From Clostridia bacterium (GTDB lineage Bacteria; Bacillota; Clostridia; UBA1212): a stretch of DNA of 64,000 bases. The stretch is taken from contig JAZPZG010000081.1 in assembly GCA_045544575.1 (NCBI GenBank), positions 578 to 64,577 on the forward strand. The letters are read 5' to 3'. This document shows, piece after piece, positions 25,497 through 39,204 of this stretch. The position numbers and the translations under genes are program-made. Position 1 is the first letter of the stretch; every line of letters starts with the position of its first letter. The notes below the pieces were generated by a model. That model was not told the origin of the DNA. It worked only from the letters and a program-made list of their open reading frames with translations, and did no database searches.

Positions 25497-26515
25497 AGCA
25501 GAGTGCCTTTTCAGGCCTTGCACACATAATTCTTTCAATAGTATTAGGTGCAATTTTGTTTTATATGTTAGACCCCTTGATAACCTTGATGGAGAAGCGC
25601 CAAGGCGTGAAGAGGGGCGTAGCCATAGGTGTGATTTTCGCGGTAATGCTTACGGTTGTAGTAGGTGTTATCGTTTTTGCCGTGCCTGCCGTAAAATATG
25701 ACGTTGCTTCCTTTTCAAATCGTATGCCCGAGATTTCAAAAAAGACGGATGAGGTTACGGAAACTTTGTTTAACTCGATGTTCGGTGAGGGAACTAAAGG
25801 CGGATTGCGTTTGCATTTTGAAGGACTGCTTGCAAAAGCAAAAGGCGAGGTTACGGAGACGGTAAATCAAATTGCCGAAAATGCTGCAACTATTTACAAA
25901 AATGTGGCAAGTGTTTTCGTGGACGTAGTTACAGGGTTTATATTCGCCTATTATTTTATAAAGGATAAGGTAAGCATTGAAAGAAAGCTGTTAGGTATTT
26001 TTCCTTACAAACGTCAGAACGATATAATTCGTGTCAGCAGGGAAATAGGCATGATTATTTCCTCTTTTATACGCGGACAGTTTTGTGTTGCGATAATTGT
26101 AGGTATTATTGAGACAATCGGTTTAAGTATTATAGGTCTTCCCGCACCGTGGCTCTTTGGGATAATAGGCGGAGTGTCAAATCTGATTCCTTATATAGGT
26201 CCTGTGATAGGTGCAATTCCTGCTGCCTTTGCGGCAATTCTGATATCGCCTTGGAGGGGAATCTTTACTGTTTTGCTGTTTGTTTTTGTACAACAGCTTG
26301 ATAATAATCTGATTTCTCCGAAAATAATAGAGAATCGTTTGGGTGTTCATCCCGTTGTGTCAATAATAGCAATATTTATTGGCGGTGAGCTGTGGGGACT
26401 TACAGGTATTCTTATAGCAATACCCTTGTATGCCGTGCTACGCTGCCTGATTGGTTTTGTAATAAAAGAGTTCATAAACAGAAGAACTGTGATTAAAAAG
26501 GTCGATAAAAGTTGA
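25493..26515 (+). CDS. AI-2E family transporter (YtvI/PerM-like, UPF0118)
   Basis: Eight predicted transmembrane helices and an AI-2E signature region (GIIGGVSNLIPYIGPVIGAIPAA). ATGA overlap with the PRC-barrel gene. Confidence 0.75.
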   Translation: MKQSAFSGLAHIILSIVLGAILFYMLDPLITLMEKRQGVKRGVAIGVIFAVMLTVVVGVIVFAVPAVKYDVASFSNRMPEISKKTDEVTETLFNSMFGEGTKGGLRLHFEGLLAKAKGEVTETVNQIAENAATIYKNVASVFVDVVTGFIFAYYFIKDKVSIERKLLGIFPYKRQNDIIRVSREIGMIISSFIRGQFCVAIIVGIIETIGLSIIGLPAPWLFGIIGGVSNLIPYIGPVIGAIPAAFAAILISPWRGIFTVLLFVFVQQLDNNLISPKIIENRLGVHPVVSIIAIFIGGELWGLTGILIAIPLYAVLRCLIGFVIKEFINRRTVIKKVDKS

Positions 26516-26574
26516 AATGGCAGAGGTTGTGTGGTAAAATGTCTTTGTTATGATTTTACGGAGGTAACGCGGGT

Positions 26575-28389
26575 ATGCAAAACACGACATATGACTTTGA
26601 AGCTTTGTGCGCGGGAAATTTTAATATTTTGTCTGCACGGCCTTTCTACATACCCTACAAGTGCCGATGTGAAGCGATAGGCGGCAATAAGCGCCGAGGA
26701 GAGAGATACAAGAGTCTTAACGGCGCGTGGAATCTGAAAATGACGGAACGTTCGGGAAAAACTCCTCTGTACGTCTATGAAAGGTGCTTTGATTTACCGC
26801 AGGCATGGAAAGGCTTGCGTATTTACGTTGCAGCTGTTCCCGTTTGTCTTCCGTATTGTATTTATATTAACGATAAGCTTTGCGCTTCAAATAACGGTTC
26901 ATCATTTGGTGAATTTGAAGTTACGGAGTTTATGAAAAGCGGAGAAAATAAAGTTACCGCAGTGTTTGATTCAGAGGCGGAAAGCATTTTGCCTTTGCTG
27001 ACTTTGGTTGCACGTCCTGCAAGACATATCAGAAGTTTCGGAATAAGTGCAACTTGTTGTTCCGATAATTCTGCCTTCATAAACGTAAATGCGGAGATTG
27101 ATTGCGGAAGCATTTGTAAGGGCTCAGCGAAACTCACTGCGGAGCTTTATGATGACGAGCTTGAGCTTGTGTCATCCGATGAAACGGAAGTGCAGTGCGA
27201 AAACAGTGAACAAACGGCTGTCGTTACGGTTAAGACGGAAAATGCCGTAATTTTTTCTGCGGACAATCCATACGTATATACACTTTTATTGCTTTTCGGC
27301 GGAGAAACCTTAAGACAGACCGTAAAGCTTGACTGCTCTCAAAGCTGTGGTTGTATTTTTGAAGAACCGAAGCACGAGGAACCTCCCTTTATTGAAATGC
27401 CCGATAAGGTTTCTGTTGAAAAGGCGCACGACACTCTGCAAATAAGCTTAATAGAACCCAAAGGCGGTGTTATAGCAGTAAAAAACATATCGGATGAGGC
27501 TGTTCCCGAAAATACCGAGCTTAACTATTTCTTATATAACCAGCGAGGTCTGTACGGCAAAGGCAGTGTAATGTTGCCCTTGTGTCAACCGAACTCGGAA
27601 AGAGTTATAAAGCTTGGATACAGCTTGCCGGAAATATCTCCTTTTGAGTATTTTCTCGAGATAGAGAGTTGCTGCTGCCGTAAACTTCAGTTTAAACTAC
27701 CTGTGACTCAGACTGTTTGTGAACGCTCATACAGTGATGAAATGCCGGAAATTTATGTAACAGAGACTACGGACGGTATGCTCGATATCAAGGGTGAAAA
27801 CTTTTTTTACAGCTTTGATTTGCAAAACGGCAGCTTTACAAAGCTTACTATGGATGGTGTAAATATGCCTCTTTGCGGTGCATCTGAGTACACGTGTCCT
27901 TCTCGACTTGTAAGCAAAACCGAAAAGTATGCTGTTATTTCGGGTGCTTTTGATTGCGGAAACGGAGTTTGTTCCGTTATGTGGATGATATTCGGAAACG
28001 GGGAAATAAGTTATTCGGTGAGCGGTATCGATGATGTTTGCTGCGGGCTTAATATATTGTCGAATGACGCTTTTTCGTCCCTTTGTTGCTTTTCTTCGGA
28101 CAGTGCCGAGAATTCCTATGCGGGACTTTATAAATTGCCCGTTGATGATGTAAACAAGATAAATGAGGCACGCTGGGCTTTGCTCTGTGACGAAGACGGT
28201 AGAGGTATGCTCTTAAAGGGAATAGAACGATTCTCTGTTGAAAAAACAGGAGCTCGACTTTATAGATGTACGGCGTCTGCGGGCGGTGAAAAGTCTGATT
28301 TCTTTGTATTTTCACTGACTGTAAGACCTGTGTTTGTTGATGATGAGGATATTGTGCGTGAGGCAAGAACTTTGCCTGCCGCAATTTAA
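26575..28389 (+). CDS. Cys-rich hypothetical protein with GH2 N-terminal sugar-binding-like region
   Basis: About 30 Cys in 604 aa, many paired (CRC, CLPYC, TCC, CGSIC, CSQSCGC, CCC, CGNGVC, VCCG, LCC). No signal peptide. The N-terminal part resembles the GH2 sugar-binding domain (SLNGAWNLKM...GENKVTAVF) but no catalytic TIM barrel is evident. Confidence 0.35.
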   Translation: MQNTTYDFEALCAGNFNILSARPFYIPYKCRCEAIGGNKRRGERYKSLNGAWNLKMTERSGKTPLYVYERCFDLPQAWKGLRIYVAAVPVCLPYCIYINDKLCASNNGSSFGEFEVTEFMKSGENKVTAVFDSEAESILPLLTLVARPARHIRSFGISATCCSDNSAFINVNAEIDCGSICKGSAKLTAELYDDELELVSSDETEVQCENSEQTAVVTVKTENAVIFSADNPYVYTLLLLFGGETLRQTVKLDCSQSCGCIFEEPKHEEPPFIEMPDKVSVEKAHDTLQISLIEPKGGVIAVKNISDEAVPENTELNYFLYNQRGLYGKGSVMLPLCQPNSERVIKLGYSLPEISPFEYFLEIESCCCRKLQFKLPVTQTVCERSYSDEMPEIYVTETTDGMLDIKGENFFYSFDLQNGSFTKLTMDGVNMPLCGASEYTCPSRLVSKTEKYAVISGAFDCGNGVCSVMWMIFGNGEISYSVSGIDDVCCGLNILSNDAFSSLCCFSSDSAENSYAGLYKLPVDDVNKINEARWALLCDEDGRGMLLKGIERFSVEKTGARLYRCTASAGGEKSDFFVFSLTVRPVFVDDEDIVREARTLPAAI

Positions 28390-28407: not shown

Positions 28408-30756
28408 ATGAAATGTAAACTGATTGCATGTGATATGGACGGGACATTACTTGACTCGAACCACGTCATTTCGCAAAAAAACATTGATGCCGTAAAACGA
28501 TGCAGCGAAAAAGGAATTAAGTTTGTGCTTTGTACGGGAAGACCCGTTCAGGCGATTGAGTCGTTTCGGGCAGAGCTTGGCCTTAATACACCTGTTATAG
28601 CATATAACGGAAGCAAGATAGTTGATCCCGAAAGCAACGAGGATCTTTATTGTGAGTGTCTGTCTGAAGAAAACGTGGAAAAAATACTGGCTCTTGCAGA
28701 AGAAAACGAGTCTGTCGTAACTGTCTGGGCAGATGATAAGCTATACATTAATAAAACCACCACGGCATCGAAGCTTTATGCAAAGCTTGCAAATGAAACT
28801 CCTGTGGCGTTCGATTTAGCAGACAGGGAGCTTTTTAGAGGAAAGAAGATCAATAAGATTCTATGGATACAAACCGCTGAGGAAGCAGCGCGATTGCTTC
28901 CCTCTTTAAAAAGTGCGCTTCCTTCGGATGTAAGCTGCTTTACCTCGAATCCGGAATATATTGAATTTGTAAACTCGAAGGTATCAAAGGGCAGGGCACT
29001 TTCTATGCTTTGTAAAAAGCTTGGAATAGACGTGAATGAGACGGTTGCGATAGGTGACGGTGAGAACGACATTGATTTGCTAAAAACTGCGGGCATGGGT
29101 ATTGCCGTGGCGAATGCATCAGATAACGTAAAAAAAGCGGCGGATAAGATTACTTCGTCAAATGACGAGAACGGTGTTGCGAGAGTAATTTACGCAATAA
29201 CGAAATCAAAGAAAAAGTCAGTTGATTCAAAGCCTGCACTTACAAGAAAGCAACGAGAAAAACTAAATGCGGAAATTCGCGCAAAAAGAAGGCGCAAAAA
29301 GGCTGAATATATTGATATAAAGGGTATTTTTAAACCATCTGTTATAATAATGTCGGTGCTTATAATGGTTTTATCGTTTGTTGCACTGAAGCTTATCGTA
29401 GACGGTATTGCTTTGCGTAACAATAAGTCTGCACTTACAGGTGACAGTATCTTGGGTGAAAGCAATTATAACGCAGGGAATACGGACTTTGAGGTAAAGG
29501 ACATAAAAGAAATATCACAGGGCCTCGCCACTCTTAAGTCTACGCACACCGAATGGACAAACTTTGCAGACGACCCCCAACAAAACGGCTTCTTTTGCAT
29601 TGCAACAGGCAGTGCAGATAAAAGATTGGTATATAATCTTGATCCGAAAAACATTTGTAATATGGGATATTCCTTGTCGGATTTTAAGTACATTTGGGTT
29701 GACTCCGTGAACACGGGCTTTTATGCCGTTATTAATATTCCGGGAGAAGTCGTTGACCTAACGGATTATTATATTTTGGTGCACAATGACACCGGAAATC
29801 TTGCATCAAGACTTATTATTAATTGCTATGAGGCTCGTGTCGTAAAATTAAAGAATACGATTTTAACAGGCACGTTGCTTGCTCCCGATGCAACGGTTGA
29901 ATACGACGGAACATCGGTGTACGGACAGGTTTATGCCAATGCGTATACGGGCACTCGTTCATTTTATAAAGATATTCCTTTCGGAGGATATTCCATTGTG
30001 ATTGAGGAAATCGGAGCAGTGGATTTTATGAACGTTGCAATACGAGCTAACGTATTAAAGTGGCTTAAGGAAAATTATCCCGAGATCTATGCGGGTCATT
30101 CGGATGATTACAGACTTAACACCGTAGATCTTACCTATGTTACGGAATTGATTCTGGATGACGTTATGATTGCCGATTTGGGTGATGACTTAAAGTATTT
30201 CAAGAACCTTAAAAAGCTTTCCGTTAAAAGAACGAAGATGACATCCCTTGACGTAAGCTTCATAAGTGAGCTTGAGGAGCTGGATATTTCGGAAACTGAA
30301 ATTTCGGAGGTTACCTTTGCAAAAAATAATTCTCTTAAGGTATTAAAAGCAGACAGAACAAAGCTTGCAGAGCTTGATATGTCTCTGCTTGAAGGCCTTA
30401 AAGAACTAAGCATTTCGGAAAATAACTTTACCGTGATGCCCGACGTATACAGTCTTGTAAACCTTACCGTGCTCAACGTAAGTAAAAATAAGTGTATAAC
30501 CTCTTTTGAGTTCAGCTCTCTTGCAAAATTGGAGAAGCTCAATATAAGTGAGTGTTCTCTGACTGAGCTTAATTTAAACGGAGCTAAGGCGCTTAAAGAA
30601 CTTCATTGCAGCTATAATTCCATACGTGAGCTTGACCTTACACCTGCAGGCTCCTTGACGTACTGTGAGGCATACGGTACTTCTTTTAAGAGCATTAATG
30701 CGGCAGGTATGAACGTAAGGGTTTCGTGCCATGAAAATGCAACCGTGATAAAATAA
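28408..30756 (+). CDS. Cof-type HAD-IIB phosphatase fused via a TM segment to a C-terminal leucine-rich-repeat (LRR) domain
   Basis: aa 1-265: HAD motif I DMDGTLLD, Cof-type cap, and motif III GDGENDIDLL. aa 270-330: basic linker (RKQREKLNAEIRAKRRRKK) and transmembrane helix IIMSVLIMVLSFVALKLIV. aa 560-782: at least eight LRRs (LKKLSVKRTKMTSLDVSFISELEELDISETEISEV...LKELHCSYNSIRELDL). Confidence 0.7.
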   Translation: MKCKLIACDMDGTLLDSNHVISQKNIDAVKRCSEKGIKFVLCTGRPVQAIESFRAELGLNTPVIAYNGSKIVDPESNEDLYCECLSEENVEKILALAEENESVVTVWADDKLYINKTTTASKLYAKLANETPVAFDLADRELFRGKKINKILWIQTAEEAARLLPSLKSALPSDVSCFTSNPEYIEFVNSKVSKGRALSMLCKKLGIDVNETVAIGDGENDIDLLKTAGMGIAVANASDNVKKAADKITSSNDENGVARVIYAITKSKKKSVDSKPALTRKQREKLNAEIRAKRRRKKAEYIDIKGIFKPSVIIMSVLIMVLSFVALKLIVDGIALRNNKSALTGDSILGESNYNAGNTDFEVKDIKEISQGLATLKSTHTEWTNFADDPQQNGFFCIATGSADKRLVYNLDPKNICNMGYSLSDFKYIWVDSVNTGFYAVINIPGEVVDLTDYYILVHNDTGNLASRLIINCYEARVVKLKNTILTGTLLAPDATVEYDGTSVYGQVYANAYTGTRSFYKDIPFGGYSIVIEEIGAVDFMNVAIRANVLKWLKENYPEIYAGHSDDYRLNTVDLTYVTELILDDVMIADLGDDLKYFKNLKKLSVKRTKMTSLDVSFISELEELDISETEISEVTFAKNNSLKVLKADRTKLAELDMSLLEGLKELSISENNFTVMPDVYSLVNLTVLNVSKNKCITSFEFSSLAKLEKLNISECSLTELNLNGAKALKELHCSYNSIRELDLTPAGSLTYCEAYGTSFKSINAAGMNVRVSCHENATVIK

Positions 30757-30825
30757 TACGCAAGAAAATCGAAAAGTTATTATTTGTGACACTTCGGCAT
30801 AAGTTTTTGTATAGTTTATGCCGGG

Positions 30826-32469
30826 GTGTTTTATTTGCAAAAGTATAAATCCGGAAAGCAAGGCGAAAGCTTTATATCGGGCGCTTTTAAACTGACGGTG
30901 GCCGGGATTATCGTGAGAATAATGGGCTTTGTAAACCGTATCTTTATGTCGAATCTTATAGGTGCGGAGGGCATGGGACTGTATCAGCTTACGTTTCCCG
31001 TGTATTCACTTATAATATTGACACTGACATCGGGAGTATCAGTTACGGTTTCCGGTCTTACCGCAAAGTATAAAGCGGCAGGAAGGCTTGATGCATGCAG
31101 AGGCTGTGCAGGAGCGGGCTTTGCATTACTGCTTGCGGCAGGCGGCGTTTGCGGTGCTGTAATGGCGGCATTTGCACGTCCGATAGCAGTTAACATATTG
31201 GGAGATTCAAGAACGGCACTTTCTATAGCACTTCTGTCTCCATGTATTCCGATTGTTGCATCTGCCTCCGCAATCAAGGGCTATTTTTACGGCATGTCCA
31301 AGGTGACGCCTACTGCAATATCACAAATTGTTGAACAGATAGTGCGAATTGGATTTATATTTATTTTTGCAGGTGCAATAGCGAAAACTGATTTAACTAA
31401 TGCCTGTGCGATTATAACGTTGTCGTCTGCGGTTGGTGAGATGGCAAACCTGCTTGTTGTAATGATTGCCTTTTGCACAGAGCAGGGGGCTTTTAAGAAA
31501 AAAAGAGCACGCAAGGAACGGCAAGGTTCGTTTGGAAGAGATATGTCATCGATAATAAAGTCATCCTTGCCGATTTCGGCAGGTAGGTTTGTTACTTCGA
31601 TGATAGGAACGGTGGAGGCGATAATGCTTCCTGCTCGCTTTTTAAAAGGAGGACTTAACTATACGGACAGTCTTTCAATGTTGGGGAGACTGAGCGGTAT
31701 GGCAATGCCTCTTATAATGTTTCCTTCCGTAGTTACTTCCGCAGTTGCAACTACACTTGTTCCTGCAATAAGCTCTGCCGTAAGTGTAAACAACATGAAG
31801 CTTGCTCGCAAGAGAATATCTCGCAGCATTATTCTTAGTTTGACAATGGGTTTTTTCTTTTTTTCTTTTTTCTTTGTTTTCGGTGATTCGTTGGGTGAAT
31901 TGCTTTACGACGGAGAAAACGTGGGAATACTGCTAAAGGAAATGTCAATTTTTTGTGTACTTTTGTATTTGCAACAGACGATGTCAGGTGTTTTAAACGG
32001 CCTTGACAGACAAAAAGAGGCTCTTGTGAGCACTCTCCTTGGATCGGTCGCTCGTCTTTGTACAATTTGGTTTGCGGTTCCGACGTTTGGGGTAGACGGA
32101 TATATTGCCGGAATGCTTTTCGGAACGGTTATTACCTGTACGATAAATTTGTGTTGTATAATTAAATGTACACGCATACCTTTTATGCCGGTTAAGTGGC
32201 TTGCAATGCCCGCAATGCCTGCTGTTGCAATGGCTTCTGCGGGGAGCCTTGTCCTGGGCTGCTTTCCGGATACGTCGTCAAACCTGATTTTATGGTGTTT
32301 TGCCGTCGGGGTGTCTGCGGCAGTGTGGCTTACAGTAATGTTTCTTACGGGACAGTTGAATTTTGGCATGGGTTGTGGTATAATTTGTCGGAGGGCGTCT
32401 GTTCGCCCGAAAGAAGGAGGAATTGCAGTTGCGACCCAGACCGAAAAAGAATTTAAAATCAAGAATTGA
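30826..32469 (+). CDS. spoVB: Stage V sporulation protein B-like MOP-superfamily polysaccharide/lipid II flippase
   Basis: GTG start. 14-TM MOP/MVF flippase architecture with a SpoVB-like N-terminus (ISGAFKLTVAGIIVRIMGFVNRIFMSNLIGAEGMGLYQLTFP). Confidence 0.6.
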   Translation: MFYLQKYKSGKQGESFISGAFKLTVAGIIVRIMGFVNRIFMSNLIGAEGMGLYQLTFPVYSLIILTLTSGVSVTVSGLTAKYKAAGRLDACRGCAGAGFALLLAAGGVCGAVMAAFARPIAVNILGDSRTALSIALLSPCIPIVASASAIKGYFYGMSKVTPTAISQIVEQIVRIGFIFIFAGAIAKTDLTNACAIITLSSAVGEMANLLVVMIAFCTEQGAFKKKRARKERQGSFGRDMSSIIKSSLPISAGRFVTSMIGTVEAIMLPARFLKGGLNYTDSLSMLGRLSGMAMPLIMFPSVVTSAVATTLVPAISSAVSVNNMKLARKRISRSIILSLTMGFFFFSFFFVFGDSLGELLYDGENVGILLKEMSIFCVLLYLQQTMSGVLNGLDRQKEALVSTLLGSVARLCTIWFAVPTFGVDGYIAGMLFGTVITCTINLCCIIKCTRIPFMPVKWLAMPAMPAVAMASAGSLVLGCFPDTSSNLILWCFAVGVSAAVWLTVMFLTGQLNFGMGCGIICRRASVRPKEGGIAVATQTEKEFKIKN

Positions 32470-36309: not shown

Positions 36310-37743
36310 ATGAGTTCACAAAAATCAAAAACAAAAGAGCTTTTTACAATCTGCAGTGATTTCTTCAAAAGCAGAAAGGCAGAGTGCTTTGTATGCTTTG
36401 CATGCCTTTGTGTGCTTTTCGGAATGTATTTTTCATGGAAAGCGGAGCAAACGGGTATTTCACGTGAATCTGCGCGAGCATCATTGTGGGTAACATTGCT
36501 GTTTGCTGCCTTGGGTGTGATTTTTGTTTTTAAATGGTTTGCAGATTTCAGGACCGCGGCAAAAGGCGGGGCTTGTAAGGCAAGTGCCGTAGGAAATATT
36601 GAAAAGAGTGACCGAACCGTTGCTTTGACAATATTTTTTACGTGTATCCTGGTAAACGTACTTTTGCTGTTCTTTCAATGTGCTCTGGGATATATTATCG
36701 GGGCATATGGCTCACTTTCAGACGGTTTGTCACGCTTTAATCAGCTTGACAGTGATCAGTATCGTTTTATAGCCGAAGGCTGGTATACAAATAGCGGTGA
36801 TCCCACAACCGACCTTAGGTTGGTTTTCTTTCCCGGTTATCCGATATTGATCCGCATTGCGTACTTTTTTATACGTGATTACATGATGGCGGCTTTGACG
36901 GTATCGCATCTGTGTATGGCGGGAGCGGGCAGCTTTATGTACCTTCTTGTCAGACTTGACTATGATAAAGACACTGCGCTTCGTGCGGTGAAATTTATGT
37001 ATTTGGTTCCTGCCGGATTATTCTTTATAACACCGATGAGTGAATCTGTTTTCTTGTTTGTTACTCTTGCTGCATTGTATTTTTCACGCAGAGGAAATAT
37101 GCTTCCCGCTGTGTGCTTTGGATTCTATGCTGCCTTTACGCGTTCCTTGGGGGTCATCGTAATGGTTCCGATGGTATACGAGCTTATAAAGAAAACTCTT
37201 GAAGAAAGGCCCGTGACAAGAAAAGACCGGGTAAAAAGGGCAGGGGATTTTGCATTGACGTTGGTAGTTCCGGCGGGCCTTGCAAGTTATTTTTTGATTA
37301 ACAAGCTCGTTACGGGCGATGCGTTTAAGTTTATGGAATACCAGAAGGAGCATTGGTATCAGGAGATAGACTACTTTTTCAACACTGCAAGCTATCAGAT
37401 GGCAAATTTTGTCAACAAGATGGATAATGACAGCATACAGGTAGGTTTTGCCCTGTGGGGAATGGGTCTTTGTGCACTCTTCGGTACGCTTATAATGTTT
37501 ATTATTTCGGCAAAGCGTATGCGTGCTTCCTATATAGGGTATTCAATTGTTTACTACGTTATGGCAATGGGTGCGACGTGGCTGCTGAGTGCCCCGAGAT
37601 ATGCCGCTGCAATGTTTACTCTTCCTGTTTCTTTTGCGTTGATTACCAAGAATAAGAAAGTTGACACTGCTGTGACGATTTTACTTACAGCGATATACGT
37701 TATATACACAATAATGTTTGTAAATCGCTGGCAGGTTTGGTGA
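36310..37743 (+). CDS. Polytopic membrane protein, GT-C-like glycosyltransferase candidate
   Basis: At least ten hydrophobic helices, 477 aa. It occupies the position where mutL normally follows mutS. Confidence 0.35.
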   Translation: MSSQKSKTKELFTICSDFFKSRKAECFVCFACLCVLFGMYFSWKAEQTGISRESARASLWVTLLFAALGVIFVFKWFADFRTAAKGGACKASAVGNIEKSDRTVALTIFFTCILVNVLLLFFQCALGYIIGAYGSLSDGLSRFNQLDSDQYRFIAEGWYTNSGDPTTDLRLVFFPGYPILIRIAYFFIRDYMMAALTVSHLCMAGAGSFMYLLVRLDYDKDTALRAVKFMYLVPAGLFFITPMSESVFLFVTLAALYFSRRGNMLPAVCFGFYAAFTRSLGVIVMVPMVYELIKKTLEERPVTRKDRVKRAGDFALTLVVPAGLASYFLINKLVTGDAFKFMEYQKEHWYQEIDYFFNTASYQMANFVNKMDNDSIQVGFALWGMGLCALFGTLIMFIISAKRMRASYIGYSIVYYVMAMGATWLLSAPRYAAAMFTLPVSFALITKNKKVDTAVTILLTAIYVIYTIMFVNRWQVW

Positions 37744-37785
37744 TTTTCGGATTGTTTCAATGATGTATCATAGGAGGGCTTGATT

Positions 37786-39204
37786 TTGGGCAACAACTTT
37801 TTGGAAGAAAAAAAGGATTTTATTAAAGAAATTCTTATTATAGCAATTGCGGCGGTTTTGTTCCTGTCGTTGGTGATGAACGTTTATAAAAAGGCGGACT
37901 CCGAGGCTCTTTCGGATCATTCGGCGTACGATAGCTATACGTTGCAGGCTCTTGCTTGGCGTGACGGCAGAATTTCTCTTGATAAAAATTATCCGTGGCT
38001 CGAGTTGGCTATTGTCAATGATAAATATTTTTCAACCCATGATAAAGATGATTATATGGCATATCGTGAGTTTTTCGGCGATGTAGGAGTTACGATTGAA
38101 CACCAAGAAGGAAATGAGTATTACGTGAGTTTTCCGCCGTTTCCGTCAGTCCCCATGTTTATTTTGAGCTTTATTTACGGCGAGGAAACGCCTAATAACA
38201 TGGTGTGTGTGCTTTATGCGGTCGGCGCCTTTGTTTTTGCGATTATGCTGTGCAGACGATTGGGGTATTCTTTTCTGGTTTCCGTTTGCGGTGCTTCGTT
38301 TATGAGCGTTGCTTCCTCTGCATTTTTCCTTTGTACCAATAAAATGGCAGGCGGTGTGTGGTTTCAGGCACAAACATTGTCGTTGTTACTGACGGTTGCA
38401 GCCTTCTTTTTTGTGTTAGGAAAACATGATGGGGAATTATACACGGCTTTTATTTTGTTGGCTCTGGCGGTGGGATGTCGTCCTTTTCAGCTGATATATT
38501 TTGTCTTCTTTGCTTACATAGCAGCGAAAAAATATGATTTTAAAATTTTAAAAACAATCAAATTTTATATTGCGCCTGCAGTAGTAGGTGTGTTGTATAT
38601 GATATACAATTACGTACGTTTCGGTAACGTTCTGGAATTTGGTCACAATTATTTACCTGAGTTTATGCGTATGCCTGCAGGTCAGTTCGGAACGGAATAC
38701 TTTAAGCCGAATTATGAAAATCTGATGAAAGAAATTCCAAAACTTTCTGTAGAGGGATTAAGCTTTAATCGCTTCGGTTTTGCATTTTGGGTTGCAAACG
38801 TGCTTTTTGTTTTAACTGCCGCAGCGTTGATTTTCTGTGCTTTTCATAATACAAAAAGCTTGTATCAAAAGAAAAAGTATTCAAGAAAGACTGTAAACGT
38901 TTTGAAAGATATTAAAGAAGGCTTTGTACCTGAAATTGTTATTTTGACGGTATTGATGATTTTCCACATAGTATTTCTGCTGTTGCATAAGACGTTGGGC
39001 GGTTGGCAGTTTGGATCAAGATATACAGTTGACCTGCTTCCTGCTGCATTGACGGCGGCAGGCTTTGCGCTCAAACCGATTTTTTCGGAGAAGAACTCTG
39101 AAGACTCTTATGAAAAAATAAAAGCACCCGCAGGTGCTTTGGCAATGGTATTATTGGTGAGCGGCAGTATTCTCAATATCTGCGGCGCATTGATGATGTT
39201 TTGA
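37786..39204 (+). CDS. Polytopic membrane protein, GT-C/ArnT-PMT-like glycosyltransferase candidate (paralogous architecture to the upstream gene)
   Basis: 474 aa with at least ten transmembrane helices and a periplasmic-type loop. TTG at 37786 is preferred because of AGGAGGG 7 nt upstream. Confidence 0.35.
   Translation: MGNNFLEEKKDFIKEILIIAIAAVLFLSLVMNVYKKADSEALSDHSAYDSYTLQALAWRDGRISLDKNYPWLELAIVNDKYFSTHDKDDYMAYREFFGDVGVTIEHQEGNEYYVSFPPFPSVPMFILSFIYGEETPNNMVCVLYAVGAFVFAIMLCRRLGYSFLVSVCGASFMSVASSAFFLCTNKMAGGVWFQAQTLSLLLTVAAFFFVLGKHDGELYTAFILLALAVGCRPFQLIYFVFFAYIAAKKYDFKILKTIKFYIAPAVVGVLYMIYNYVRFGNVLEFGHNYLPEFMRMPAGQFGTEYFKPNYENLMKEIPKLSVEGLSFNRFGFAFWVANVLFVLTAAALIFCAFHNTKSLYQKKKYSRKTVNVLKDIKEGFVPEIVILTVLMIFHIVFLLLHKTLGGWQFGSRYTVDLLPAALTAAGFALKPIFSEKNSEDSYEKIKAPAGALAMVLLVSGSILNICGALMMF

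Follow-up and report, generated by a model that had tools for sequence, protein, structure and literature searches.

The window analysed here (the whole stretch of 64,000 nucleotides) contains, at 28408-30756 on the forward strand, an open reading frame (ORF) that starts with ATG and encodes 782 amino acids, joining in order a Cof-type HAD-IIB phosphatase, a linker, a transmembrane helix, a choice-of-anchor A domain and leucine-rich repeats (LRRs), just as described in an initial annotation of this DNA. Upstream on the same strand lies its operon partner (26575-28389), a 604-aa, Cys-rich protein in which profiles recognise GH2-like N-terminal domains only, and ahead of this gene a consensus scan picked out a promoter-like site (TTGAAA-17-TAAAAT with TG; 26512-26540, +). 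An intrinsic-terminator-like hairpin with a U tract (30788-30840, +) follows 32 nt past the stop of the fused ORF, with an 18-pair stem, a predicted energy of -22.9 kcal/mol and a z of -3.8. The 64-kb window is 93% coding and holds 465 homopolymers of at least 5 bases; the syntenic neighbours of the ORF all have their full length, and a single overlapping ORF pair in the window looked suspicious but proved to be TGT and YajC, both intact.

The N-terminal part (residues 5-261; 28420-29190, +) is a complete phosphatase domain with intact motifs, in agreement with the initial annotation: PF08282 matches it with 252.5 bits (cut-off 20.9) over profile positions 1-255 of 255, and TIGR00099, which describes the Cof subfamily, matches residues 5-261 with 215.3 bits (cut-off 137) over positions 1-256 of 256. 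When aligned with stand-alone orthologues (11 sequences), the catalytic positions D9, D11, T13, T43, K194, D217 and D221 are all present and are invariant or nearly so, and motifs I (DxDGT), II (T), III (K) and IV (GDGxND) are intact. The domain is modelled by AF2 with a pLDDT of at least 93 and is predicted to be cytoplasmic. Equivalog models score below their cut-offs on this part (the sugar-phosphatase model NF007806, for example, reaches 144 bits against 273).

The features that the initial annotation had placed downstream of the phosphatase (a strongly basic segment, one transmembrane helix, choice-of-anchor A features and at least eight LRRs) were each recovered. Residues 265-308 hold 17 K/R against 5 D/E, and a hydropathy scan of the whole protein gave a sole hydrophobic segment, which peaks at a KD19 value of 2.78 (residues 313-331); the runner-up reaches 1.16. 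This single transmembrane helix or signal anchor (residues ~309-331; 29332-29400, +; AF2 helix at 310-342) aligns with the N-terminal transmembrane segment of all stand-alone relatives. The choice-of-anchor A/pAdhesive_15 domain that follows (residues 354-520; 29467-29967, +) scores above cut-off with both TIGR04215 (57 bits against 29) and PF20597 (53.2 bits against 23.8), each match covering only model positions ~100-249 of 254-255, and is beta-rich in the AF2 model (strands at 394-521, pLDDT ~90). As to the beta-solenoid or ice-binding-like fold expected of this family, a PDB sequence search found no relative of this part, and in a Foldseek search of the PDB with the C-terminal model, LRR matches dominated over it. 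The choice-of-anchor A family is named for an accompanying C-terminal sorting/anchor signal, but the C-terminus of the fused ORF (...VSCHENATVIK) shows neither an LPXTG motif nor a hydrophobic tail in its sequence and hydropathy; anchoring is by the transmembrane helix upstream of the domain, not by a C-terminal signal. The remainder (residues 575-781; 30130-30750, +) is an internalin-like LRR domain of about 9-10 repeats, recognised by LRR_4 and LRR_8 above cut-off and by a Foldseek match to InlB, and modelled by AF2 as about 10 beta rungs (residues 580-781). Domain profile matches along the ORF span E-values of 1e-11 to 1e-75, far past chance, and residues 262-353 match no Pfam or NCBIfam family.

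Hydropathy and charge both agree with the earlier claim of an inside phosphatase and an outside LRR: The N-side of the transmembrane helix carries 15 K/R against 5 D/E and the C-side 4 K/R against 7 D/E, a positive-inside bias that predicts an N-in/C-out topology with the choice-of-anchor A and LRR domains extracytoplasmic. Structure prediction, which the initial annotation had proposed domain by domain, resolved the HAD, choice-of-anchor A and LRR parts as three separate, confident modules with low-confidence hinges between them (pLDDT 91.1, pTM 0.54). The linker region is modelled as one helix (280-306), bordered at 270-277 and 301-306 by hinges in which pLDDT falls under 50.

To compare fused with separate genes, as had also been proposed, we examined homologues of both halves, and at every orthologous locus the HAD and ectodomain genes are separate. 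In 12 syntenic lineages (counted as L001, L002-5/L009, L006-8, L010-14, L032 and L035), a HAD gene (264-284 aa) is directly followed by a gene for a transmembrane, choice-of-anchor A and LRR protein (477-675 aa), each with its own stop, Shine-Dalgarno (SD) site and start. From HAD stop to downstream start, the arrangement varies between a 4-nt overlap and a gap of about 110 nt, and some pairs are translationally coupled (4-nt overlap in L001; 1-nt gap in L032). The HAD and choice-of-anchor A/LRR genes are conserved neighbours in two clades, in which the GH2-like gene is syntenic with them, and the HAD neighbour is absent in the two closest ectodomain relatives and in 15 distant ones. This operon trio is conserved in uncultured rumen and gut Clostridia.

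The fused architecture itself was seen nowhere else in the databases searched, in line with the initial annotation, which had called it unusual. A full-length search of 5.8 billion protein clusters returned a sole full-length match, the identical sequence P0001 in a singleton cluster, and in an exhaustive HMMER scan of 1.84 billion representatives P0001 alone spans residues 1-782, the remaining matches covering either 1-267 or ~290-780. The fusion occurs in none of the 12 syntenic lineages, none of 26 choice-of-anchor A/LRR relatives and none of the 120 best HAD relatives, which are 259-286 aa long and match only the HAD part of the query. A metagenome scan with a junction-spanning peptide gave only two distant matches, to 28 HAD residues, and the species is known from one assembly among all collections searched, which leaves the junction without a second copy. 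Candidate analogues proved to be of other kinds: P0265 joins a HAD to a tagaturonate epimerase in a soluble protein with neither transmembrane segment nor ectodomain, and P0184, P0241, P0264 and P0280 are tandem HADs that likewise lack both. In the literature, 'choice-of-anchor A' led to lectin or adhesive contexts only (Acanthamoeba Jonah lectins, diatom trail proteins), and a broader search for HAD-transmembrane-LRR fusions found nothing relevant.

The junction between the two halves (residues ~265-308, 44 aa; 29203-29331, +) is 48% A and strongly basic, and in frame 0 it contains no stop codon and no ATG, GTG or TTG. Codon 266 (AAA, 29203-29205) aligns with the stop codon of the closest orthologues. 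As a finding that would refute its reading, the initial annotation had named a sequencing error that created read-through between two genes, with a stop expected near 29200-29260; orthologue stop codons map to ~29203-29215 of the window, which comes essentially to that case, whether the read-through is a real mutation or a sequencing or assembly error. Four A5 runs fall within 90 nt of the junction (at 29212, 29258, 29283 and 29296), and a frame and homopolymer scan revealed, amid these runs, a TAA-ATG in the +1 frame (29264-29269, +), probably left over from the stop and start that once separated the genes. At 132 nt, the junction of the fused locus is longer than those of its four closest relatives (71-93 nt); the extra ~45 nt have no better match elsewhere in the 64,000-nt window. 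A MAFFT misalignment had hinted that the linker might be a decayed second copy of the HAD tail, arisen by tandem duplication, an idea we discarded when 1747 of 2000 shuffles equalled the local alignment score. Codon usage in the linker favours frame 0 (2.98, against about -13 in the off-frames), a score confounded by the lack of stops, yet among real coding segments this value reaches only the 5th percentile.

We favour a genuine event over an assembly error and regard the ORF as probably a read-through fusion, specific to this lineage, of adjacent and co-transcribed genes that all relatives keep apart, because there are no frameshifts elsewhere in the window. The competing view, to which we assign a distinctly lower though still appreciable likelihood, is that the genes are separate in the real genome and that their frames were joined by a miscall of one or two bases within the A-rich junction, for example an A6 read as A5 at 29283 or 29296, which would place the downstream gene in frame with the HAD and abolish the effective stop. 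It gains from the fusion being a singleton among all relatives, from the four A5 runs so close to the junction and from the source, which appears to be an uncultured-organism assembly because all of its relatives are MAGs. The +1-frame TAA-ATG, moreover, lies exactly where the orthologues' downstream gene begins: Lengthening A5 to A6 at 29283 or 29296 restores a 496-aa gene from the ATG at 29267, the orthologues' start site, whose product begins MRKFAQK(R)RRKKAEYIDIK. The single assembly of the species also counts against a fusion, as may the low percentile of the linker's codon usage. However, simulated single-A edits at the A5 runs yield, alongside this 496-aa protein (MRKFAQK...), a HAD of 285 or 299 aa, and the 299-aa form bears a ~35-aa tail that is absent in the closest relatives and runs 41 nt into the next gene. 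Ahead of the restored start, the best SD match is just 3 nt long, compared with GGAGG-class SDs in five of the six closest relatives. Because of this overlap and weak SD, a one-base repair has no clear advantage in parsimony over a real fusion, and a tidy TAA/ATG arrangement would require two compensating indels. Furthermore, the other ~460 homopolymer runs in the window show no detectable frameshift, an out-of-frame ATG in a ~60-nt A-rich stretch has an estimated chance expectation of about 0.7, and the length of the junction, its lack of a frame-0 stop or start and its weak SD suggest that it was remodelled rather than simply misread, which we counted in favour of a real fusion, as we did the uniqueness of the sequence, the two-gene state of the relatives, the compatible topology and the precedent for a membrane-tethered Cof HAD in GtrA-HAD proteins.

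Far less credible than either is an evolved receptor, in which ligand binding by the extracellular LRR and choice-of-anchor A domains regulates the cytoplasmic HAD across the membrane, a proposal that we consider exceedingly improbable. The predicted topology, with the LRR outside and an intact HAD inside, is what such a receptor would need, and the conserved and sometimes translationally coupled neighbourhood of the HAD and choice-of-anchor A/LRR genes in two clades hints at a functional link. But covalent coupling is found in none of the 12 syntenic lineages and nowhere else among 1.84 billion representatives, the two closest relatives of the ectodomain protein have no HAD neighbour, and no module for transmission or dimerisation could be recognised in the linker, which contains the low-confidence hinges (270-277 and 301-306). 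Cof-type HADs are small-molecule phosphatases and are not known to be coupled allosterically to receptors. The receptor-like character ascribed to this architecture in the initial annotation is therefore unsupported: With the genes separate at all orthologous loci, no conserved coupling and no signal-transmission module in the linker, receptor-like signalling has no support whether the fusion is real or artefactual. Because no relative found has the two genes joined, the ORF represents either a gene fusion that happened once or a slip in the assembly, rather than an evolved receptor. We also give very little credence to a genuinely functional 'receptor phosphatase', in which a carbohydrate or a host or wall ligand at the ectodomain modulates the HAD or targets it spatially; in a milder form of this idea, the fusion may be a Rosetta-stone clue that the HAD, the surface protein and their GH2-like operon partner physically cooperate in all relatives.

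Under the read-through fusion that we favour, the first gene would have encoded a Cof-type HAD-IIB phosphatase of the ordinary kind, soluble and cytoplasmic, with small phosphorylated metabolites as substrates, and the second a type II (N-in/C-out) single-pass protein displaying the choice-of-anchor A and internalin-like LRR domains on the surface, probably as a binding or adhesion module. The stop, SD site and start at their junction would then have been lost, most plausibly by slippage in the A5 runs flanking the ancestral TAA-ATG: The A-rich junction, its four A5 runs and the +1-frame TAA-ATG all point to poly-A slippage. Such a fusion would be topologically harmless because the N-terminus of the downstream protein was already cytoplasmic, and cytoplasmic N-terminal tails in the choice-of-anchor A/LRR family range from about 7 to 170 aa. 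If the organism does carry the fusion and does produce and insert the protein, membrane insertion would be driven by the internal signal anchor. A basic, flexible linker of ~45 residues would then tether the HAD on the cytoplasmic side, and the ectodomain would be displayed as before the fusion. Each half would most likely retain its ancestral job, yielding a membrane-tethered phosphatase and a surface binding module between which no transmembrane signalling is expected.

If genuine, this would be the only known Cof-type HAD that is membrane-tethered via a surface LRR/adhesin-type protein, and a natural Rosetta-stone hint that the GH2-like protein, the HAD phosphatase and the surface choice-of-anchor A/LRR protein of the operon work together. 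At present, however, the fusion is a singleton from one assembly of an uncultured organism, and each of its halves belongs, as an ordinary member, to a known family. In practice it serves mainly as a warning: When a MAG-derived protein shows a striking domain architecture, synteny should be consulted before a new receptor type is claimed.

Each half resembles proteins that occur on their own. The HAD part shares its full-length profile match and four catalytic motifs with stand-alone phosphatases (e.g., the E. coli YidA/Cof-type sugar phosphatases), and the stand-alone Cof-type HAD-IIB orthologues P0047 (60% identity) and P0048 (59%) are syntenic, occupying the same gene-order position. Stand-alone HADs are soluble proteins of 259-286 aa that end within about 13 residues of a VIYxxI motif, whereas the fused ORF continues. 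Its residues ~296-782 are 32-57% identical to P0002-P0027, type II membrane-anchored choice-of-anchor A and LRR proteins from rumen and gut Clostridia (NCBI lists two of them, P0008 and P0015, as 'choice-of-anchor A family protein [Clostridia bacterium]'), and share with them a short basic tail, an EY(I/V)D(I/V)K motif, the transmembrane, choice-of-anchor A and LRR segments and the genomic position. Unlike the fused ORF, these relatives have their own start codon 7-170 residues before the transmembrane helix and no globular cytoplasmic domain; the fused ORF, for its part, is without one ~24-aa LRR unit found in all 17 aligned relatives.

Among more distant systems, the best PDB fold match to the LRR domain is Listeria InlB (4aw4; Foldseek E 1.2e-7, target TM-score 0.59), with InlA, InlH and InlJ also among the top matches (E ~1e-7), and the InlJ family model NF033187 reaches 57 bits on the fused ORF against a cut-off of 1700. 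The signal peptide and cap that internalins carry at the N-terminus are missing from the fused ORF, as are their LPXTG or GW anchors; it has a signal anchor of the N-terminal type instead. Plant LRR receptor kinases and Toll-like receptors combine an LRR ectodomain, a single transmembrane segment and a cytoplasmic domain in a type I arrangement, in which a signal peptide precedes an N-terminal LRR; a kinase or TIR domain, instead of a HAD, provides the output, and large families conserve this coupling. Compared with these eukaryotic receptors, the fused ORF has the opposite orientation, a HAD as output and no transmission module, and it is a singleton. A parallel for its tethered phosphatase comes from GtrA-like and Cof HAD fusions of Clostridia, represented by P0034 (563 member sequences) and P0038 (73; listed as 'Cof-type HAD-IIB family hydrolase [Eubacterium coprostanoligenes]'), in which the HAD is likewise membrane-tethered. 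These proteins are widespread, anchor the HAD by an N-terminal polytopic GtrA-like membrane part (PF04138) and have no ectodomain, whereas the fused ORF, a singleton, is anchored by a single-pass helix C-terminal to the HAD and carries a large ectodomain beyond it.

The open reading frame at 28408-30756 (+, 782 aa) is exactly as the initial annotation described it, and profile searches confirmed every module named there. Residues 5-261 constitute a complete Cof-type HAD-IIB hydrolase (PF08282, 252.5 bits over profile positions 1-255 of 255; TIGR00099, 215.3 bits vs a cut-off of 137), whose seven catalytic residues (D9, D11, T13, T43, K194, D217 and D221) are all in place and show little or no variation when aligned with stand-alone orthologues; no equivalog cut-off was reached by this half in the profile search. 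A choice-of-anchor A (CoA)/pAdhesive_15 domain follows at residues 354-520 (TIGR04215, 57 bits vs 29; PF20597, 53.2 vs 23.8), and leucine-rich repeats, matched by LRR_4 and LRR_8 above cut-off, occupy residues ~575-755. Hydropathy reveals exactly one membrane-spanning segment (KD19 of 2.78 at residues 313-331, the rest of the protein reaching at most 1.16), and because charged residues are 15 K/R to 5 D/E on its N-terminal side and 4 K/R to 7 D/E on its C-terminal side, the positive-inside rule predicts a cytoplasmic HAD and an external CoA/LRR part, as had been proposed. AlphaFold2 models (full length, pLDDT 91.1 and pTM 0.54; residues 296-782, pLDDT 84.7) resolve the same three modules with confidence, namely the HAD (1-265), a beta-rich domain (394-521) and an LRR solenoid of ~10 rungs (580-781), connected by a linker helix (280-306) and the TM helix (310-342), with low-confidence hinges at 270-277, 301-306 and 340-362. 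The nearest fold to the LRR half is Listeria InlB (Foldseek E 1.2e-7, target TM-score 0.59). The LRR domain, a fast-evolving surface domain, differs in repeat number, in frame, from the 17 relatives aligned with it in A1: one unit of ~24 residues that every one of them has (columns 701-724) is missing between residues ~677 and 678, at window position ~30440.

When homologues with the same fusion were sought, comparison of the whole protein with 5.8 billion clusters recovered it only in the identical database protein P0001, which is the sole member of its cluster and known from one NCBI contig of 67 kb. An index-free HMMER scan of 1.84 billion representatives likewise matched residues 1-782 to P0001 only, all other matches covering either residues 1-267 or ~290-780. 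For the C-terminal part there were 26 relatives (32-57% identity), each a separate protein of 477-675 aa with its start 7-170 residues ahead of the TM helix; residues 1-335 (HAD, linker and TM helix) retrieved 919 HAD relatives, the best 120 of which are all 259-286 aa long and cover the HAD part only. A few long HAD matches, considered as fusion analogues, were either HADs in tandem or, in one case, a soluble HAD-tagaturonate epimerase. The collections searched contained no further genome of this species.

In 12 distinct lineages (loci L001; L002-5/L009; L006-8; L010-14; L032; L035), the HAD and CoA/LRR genes are separate, adjacent and co-directional, always with a stop codon between them. 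The order conserved in the closest relatives is PRC-domain protein, YtvI-like AI-2E protein, GH2-like protein, HAD, CoA/LRR, SpoVB-like flippase, TrmB, YlbF and MutS, with identities of 87-90% for MutS but only 50-55% for CoA/LRR. Junctions range from a 4-nt ATGA overlap (L001) and a 1-nt gap (L032) through gaps of 20-30 nt (L009, L035) to as much as ~110 nt from HAD stop to downstream start. Stand-alone HADs stop within ~0-13 residues of the window's 'VIYAIT', and in two of them, P0048 and P0049, the stop falls precisely opposite codon 266 of the fused ORF (AAA, 29203-29205). The HAD is missing upstream of P0002 and P0006, which are among the closest ectodomain relatives, and of 15 distant ones. 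At L008 (3841-3864; goat rumen MAG RGIG3519), the two genes share a reading frame in which the HAD's own TAA is the sole stop between them, the downstream ATG lying 18 nt past it; one substitution there would make a fusion analogous to that in the window.

From the end of the HAD fold to the conserved EYIDIK motif, the window's junction measures 132 nt; in the four closest relatives the corresponding stretch has 71-93 nt (manual count). Adenine makes up 48% of the window's junction, and A5 runs occur at four places (29212, 29258, 29283 and 29296). Frame 0 contains neither a stop nor an ATG, GTG or TTG across 29190-29345, and no Shine-Dalgarno site occurs in the junction, whereas five of the six closest relatives have one of the GGAGG class. 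Candidate starts lie in the +1 frame only, among them an ATG at 29267, directly preceded by TAA (29264-29266), at the position where the orthologues' downstream gene begins. Simulated insertion of one A at 29283 or 29296 restored a 496-aa downstream protein (MRKFAQK(R)RRKKAEYIDIK...) and left a 299-aa HAD overlapping it by 41 nt; additional removal of an A at 29258 gave a textbook pair, with a 285-aa HAD ending in TAA immediately before the ATG. Substituting T at 29203, which turns AAA into TAA, would shorten the HAD to 265 aa, the state of the closest relatives, but would provide no start codon for the downstream part. Slippage in poly-A around an ancestral TAA-ATG junction would be the most economical history.

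We consider it probable that the fusion is real and that its halves are independent, since the junction has lost all three signals of independent expression (in-frame stop, SD site and in-frame start), its greater length indicates that more than one event took place, and repair by a single base yields an atypical overlap. The assembly is also otherwise clean: the window is 93% coding, no frameshift was detected at any of the other ~460 homopolymer runs, nine syntenic neighbours have their full length, and the one overlapping ORF pair that looked suspicious proved to be intact TGT and YajC. An assembly or sequencing error is less likely but quite possible: the fusion is a singleton from an uncultured-organism assembly, and its A-runs lie exactly where a one-base change gives back a start at the orthologous position. 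In a codon-usage test, the linker scored 2.98 in frame 0 against about -13 in the other frames, yet this is only the 5th percentile of true coding segments and is confounded by the absence of stops, so that the test favoured neither reading. More exotic readings share what remains.

A promoter-like site (26512-26540) and, after the fused ORF, a strong terminator-like hairpin with U tract (30788-30840, +; hairpin 30788-30830, 18 pairs, -22.9 kcal/mol, z -3.8) bracket the GH2-like, HAD and CoA/LRR trio, which suggests a single transcription unit. The GH2-like Cys-rich protein (26575-28389, +, 604 aa) ends 18 nt before the fused ORF begins and is syntenic with HAD and CoA/LRR in two clades that keep the trio (41-45% and 25-28% identity). 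Its scores for the GH2 N-terminal sugar-binding domain (27.3 bits vs 28) and Ig-like domain (22.1 vs 23) stay below threshold, LacZ-type models match only residues ~63-240, and a profile search found no catalytic TIM barrel; it may be a non-catalytic partner within the same operon. The SpoVB-like flippase ORF (30826-32469, +) matches TIGR02900 (stage V sporulation protein B) at 336 bits, below the cut-off of 372, and because its first start, a GTG at 30826, lies inside the hairpin, the true start is probably further downstream. Further on, adjacent ORFs at 36310-37743 and 37780-39204 (+; 477 and 474 aa), without any Pfam or NCBIfam match, may be paralogous.

The downstream protein would natively be type II and signal-anchored with a cytoplasmic N-terminus, so that adding a soluble cytoplasmic enzyme there should be topologically neutral: the hydrophobic helix, although now internal, would still serve as signal anchor, with the basic linker on the cytoplasmic side and export of the ectodomain unchanged. 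The cytoplasmic N-terminus of this family is evidently plastic in evolution and tolerates long tails: most members have 7-50 residues before the TM helix, but P0016 (675 aa) has an acidic, low-complexity tail of ~170. This neutrality, the tolerance of long tails and the precedent of GtrA::HAD fusions make it most likely that the halves behave additively, the HAD as a predicted membrane-tethered small-molecule phosphatase and the CoA domain with the internalin-like LRR as a predicted surface binding module. Choice-of-anchor A domains have been described in lectin and adhesive proteins. The receptor-like reading of the initial annotation holds for architecture and topology but not for function: nothing supports transmembrane signalling from ectodomain to HAD, the coupling of the two is not conserved, and the linker, with its flexible hinges, contains no transmission module that we could find. 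Cof-type HADs are not known to act as receptor outputs.

Of modest interest is that the GH2-like, HAD and CoA/LRR genes are conserved neighbours, in places translationally coupled, and the fusion, if real, would support a functional partnership among them. It is, however, a singleton, probably arisen by read-through of neighbouring genes, a well-known process, and it may be an artefact. Taken singly, the halves are ordinary members of known families, one of the Cof-type HAD-IIB proteins and the other of the Clostridia TM-CoA-LRR family (NCBI, 'choice-of-anchor A family protein'); their combination is found nowhere else and is formally new. Membrane tethering of a Cof-type HAD is known in another form from the GtrA::HAD fusions (P0034 and P0038, with 563 and 73 member sequences), in which an N-terminal GtrA-like polytopic membrane domain precedes the HAD and which are widespread and conserved in Clostridia.
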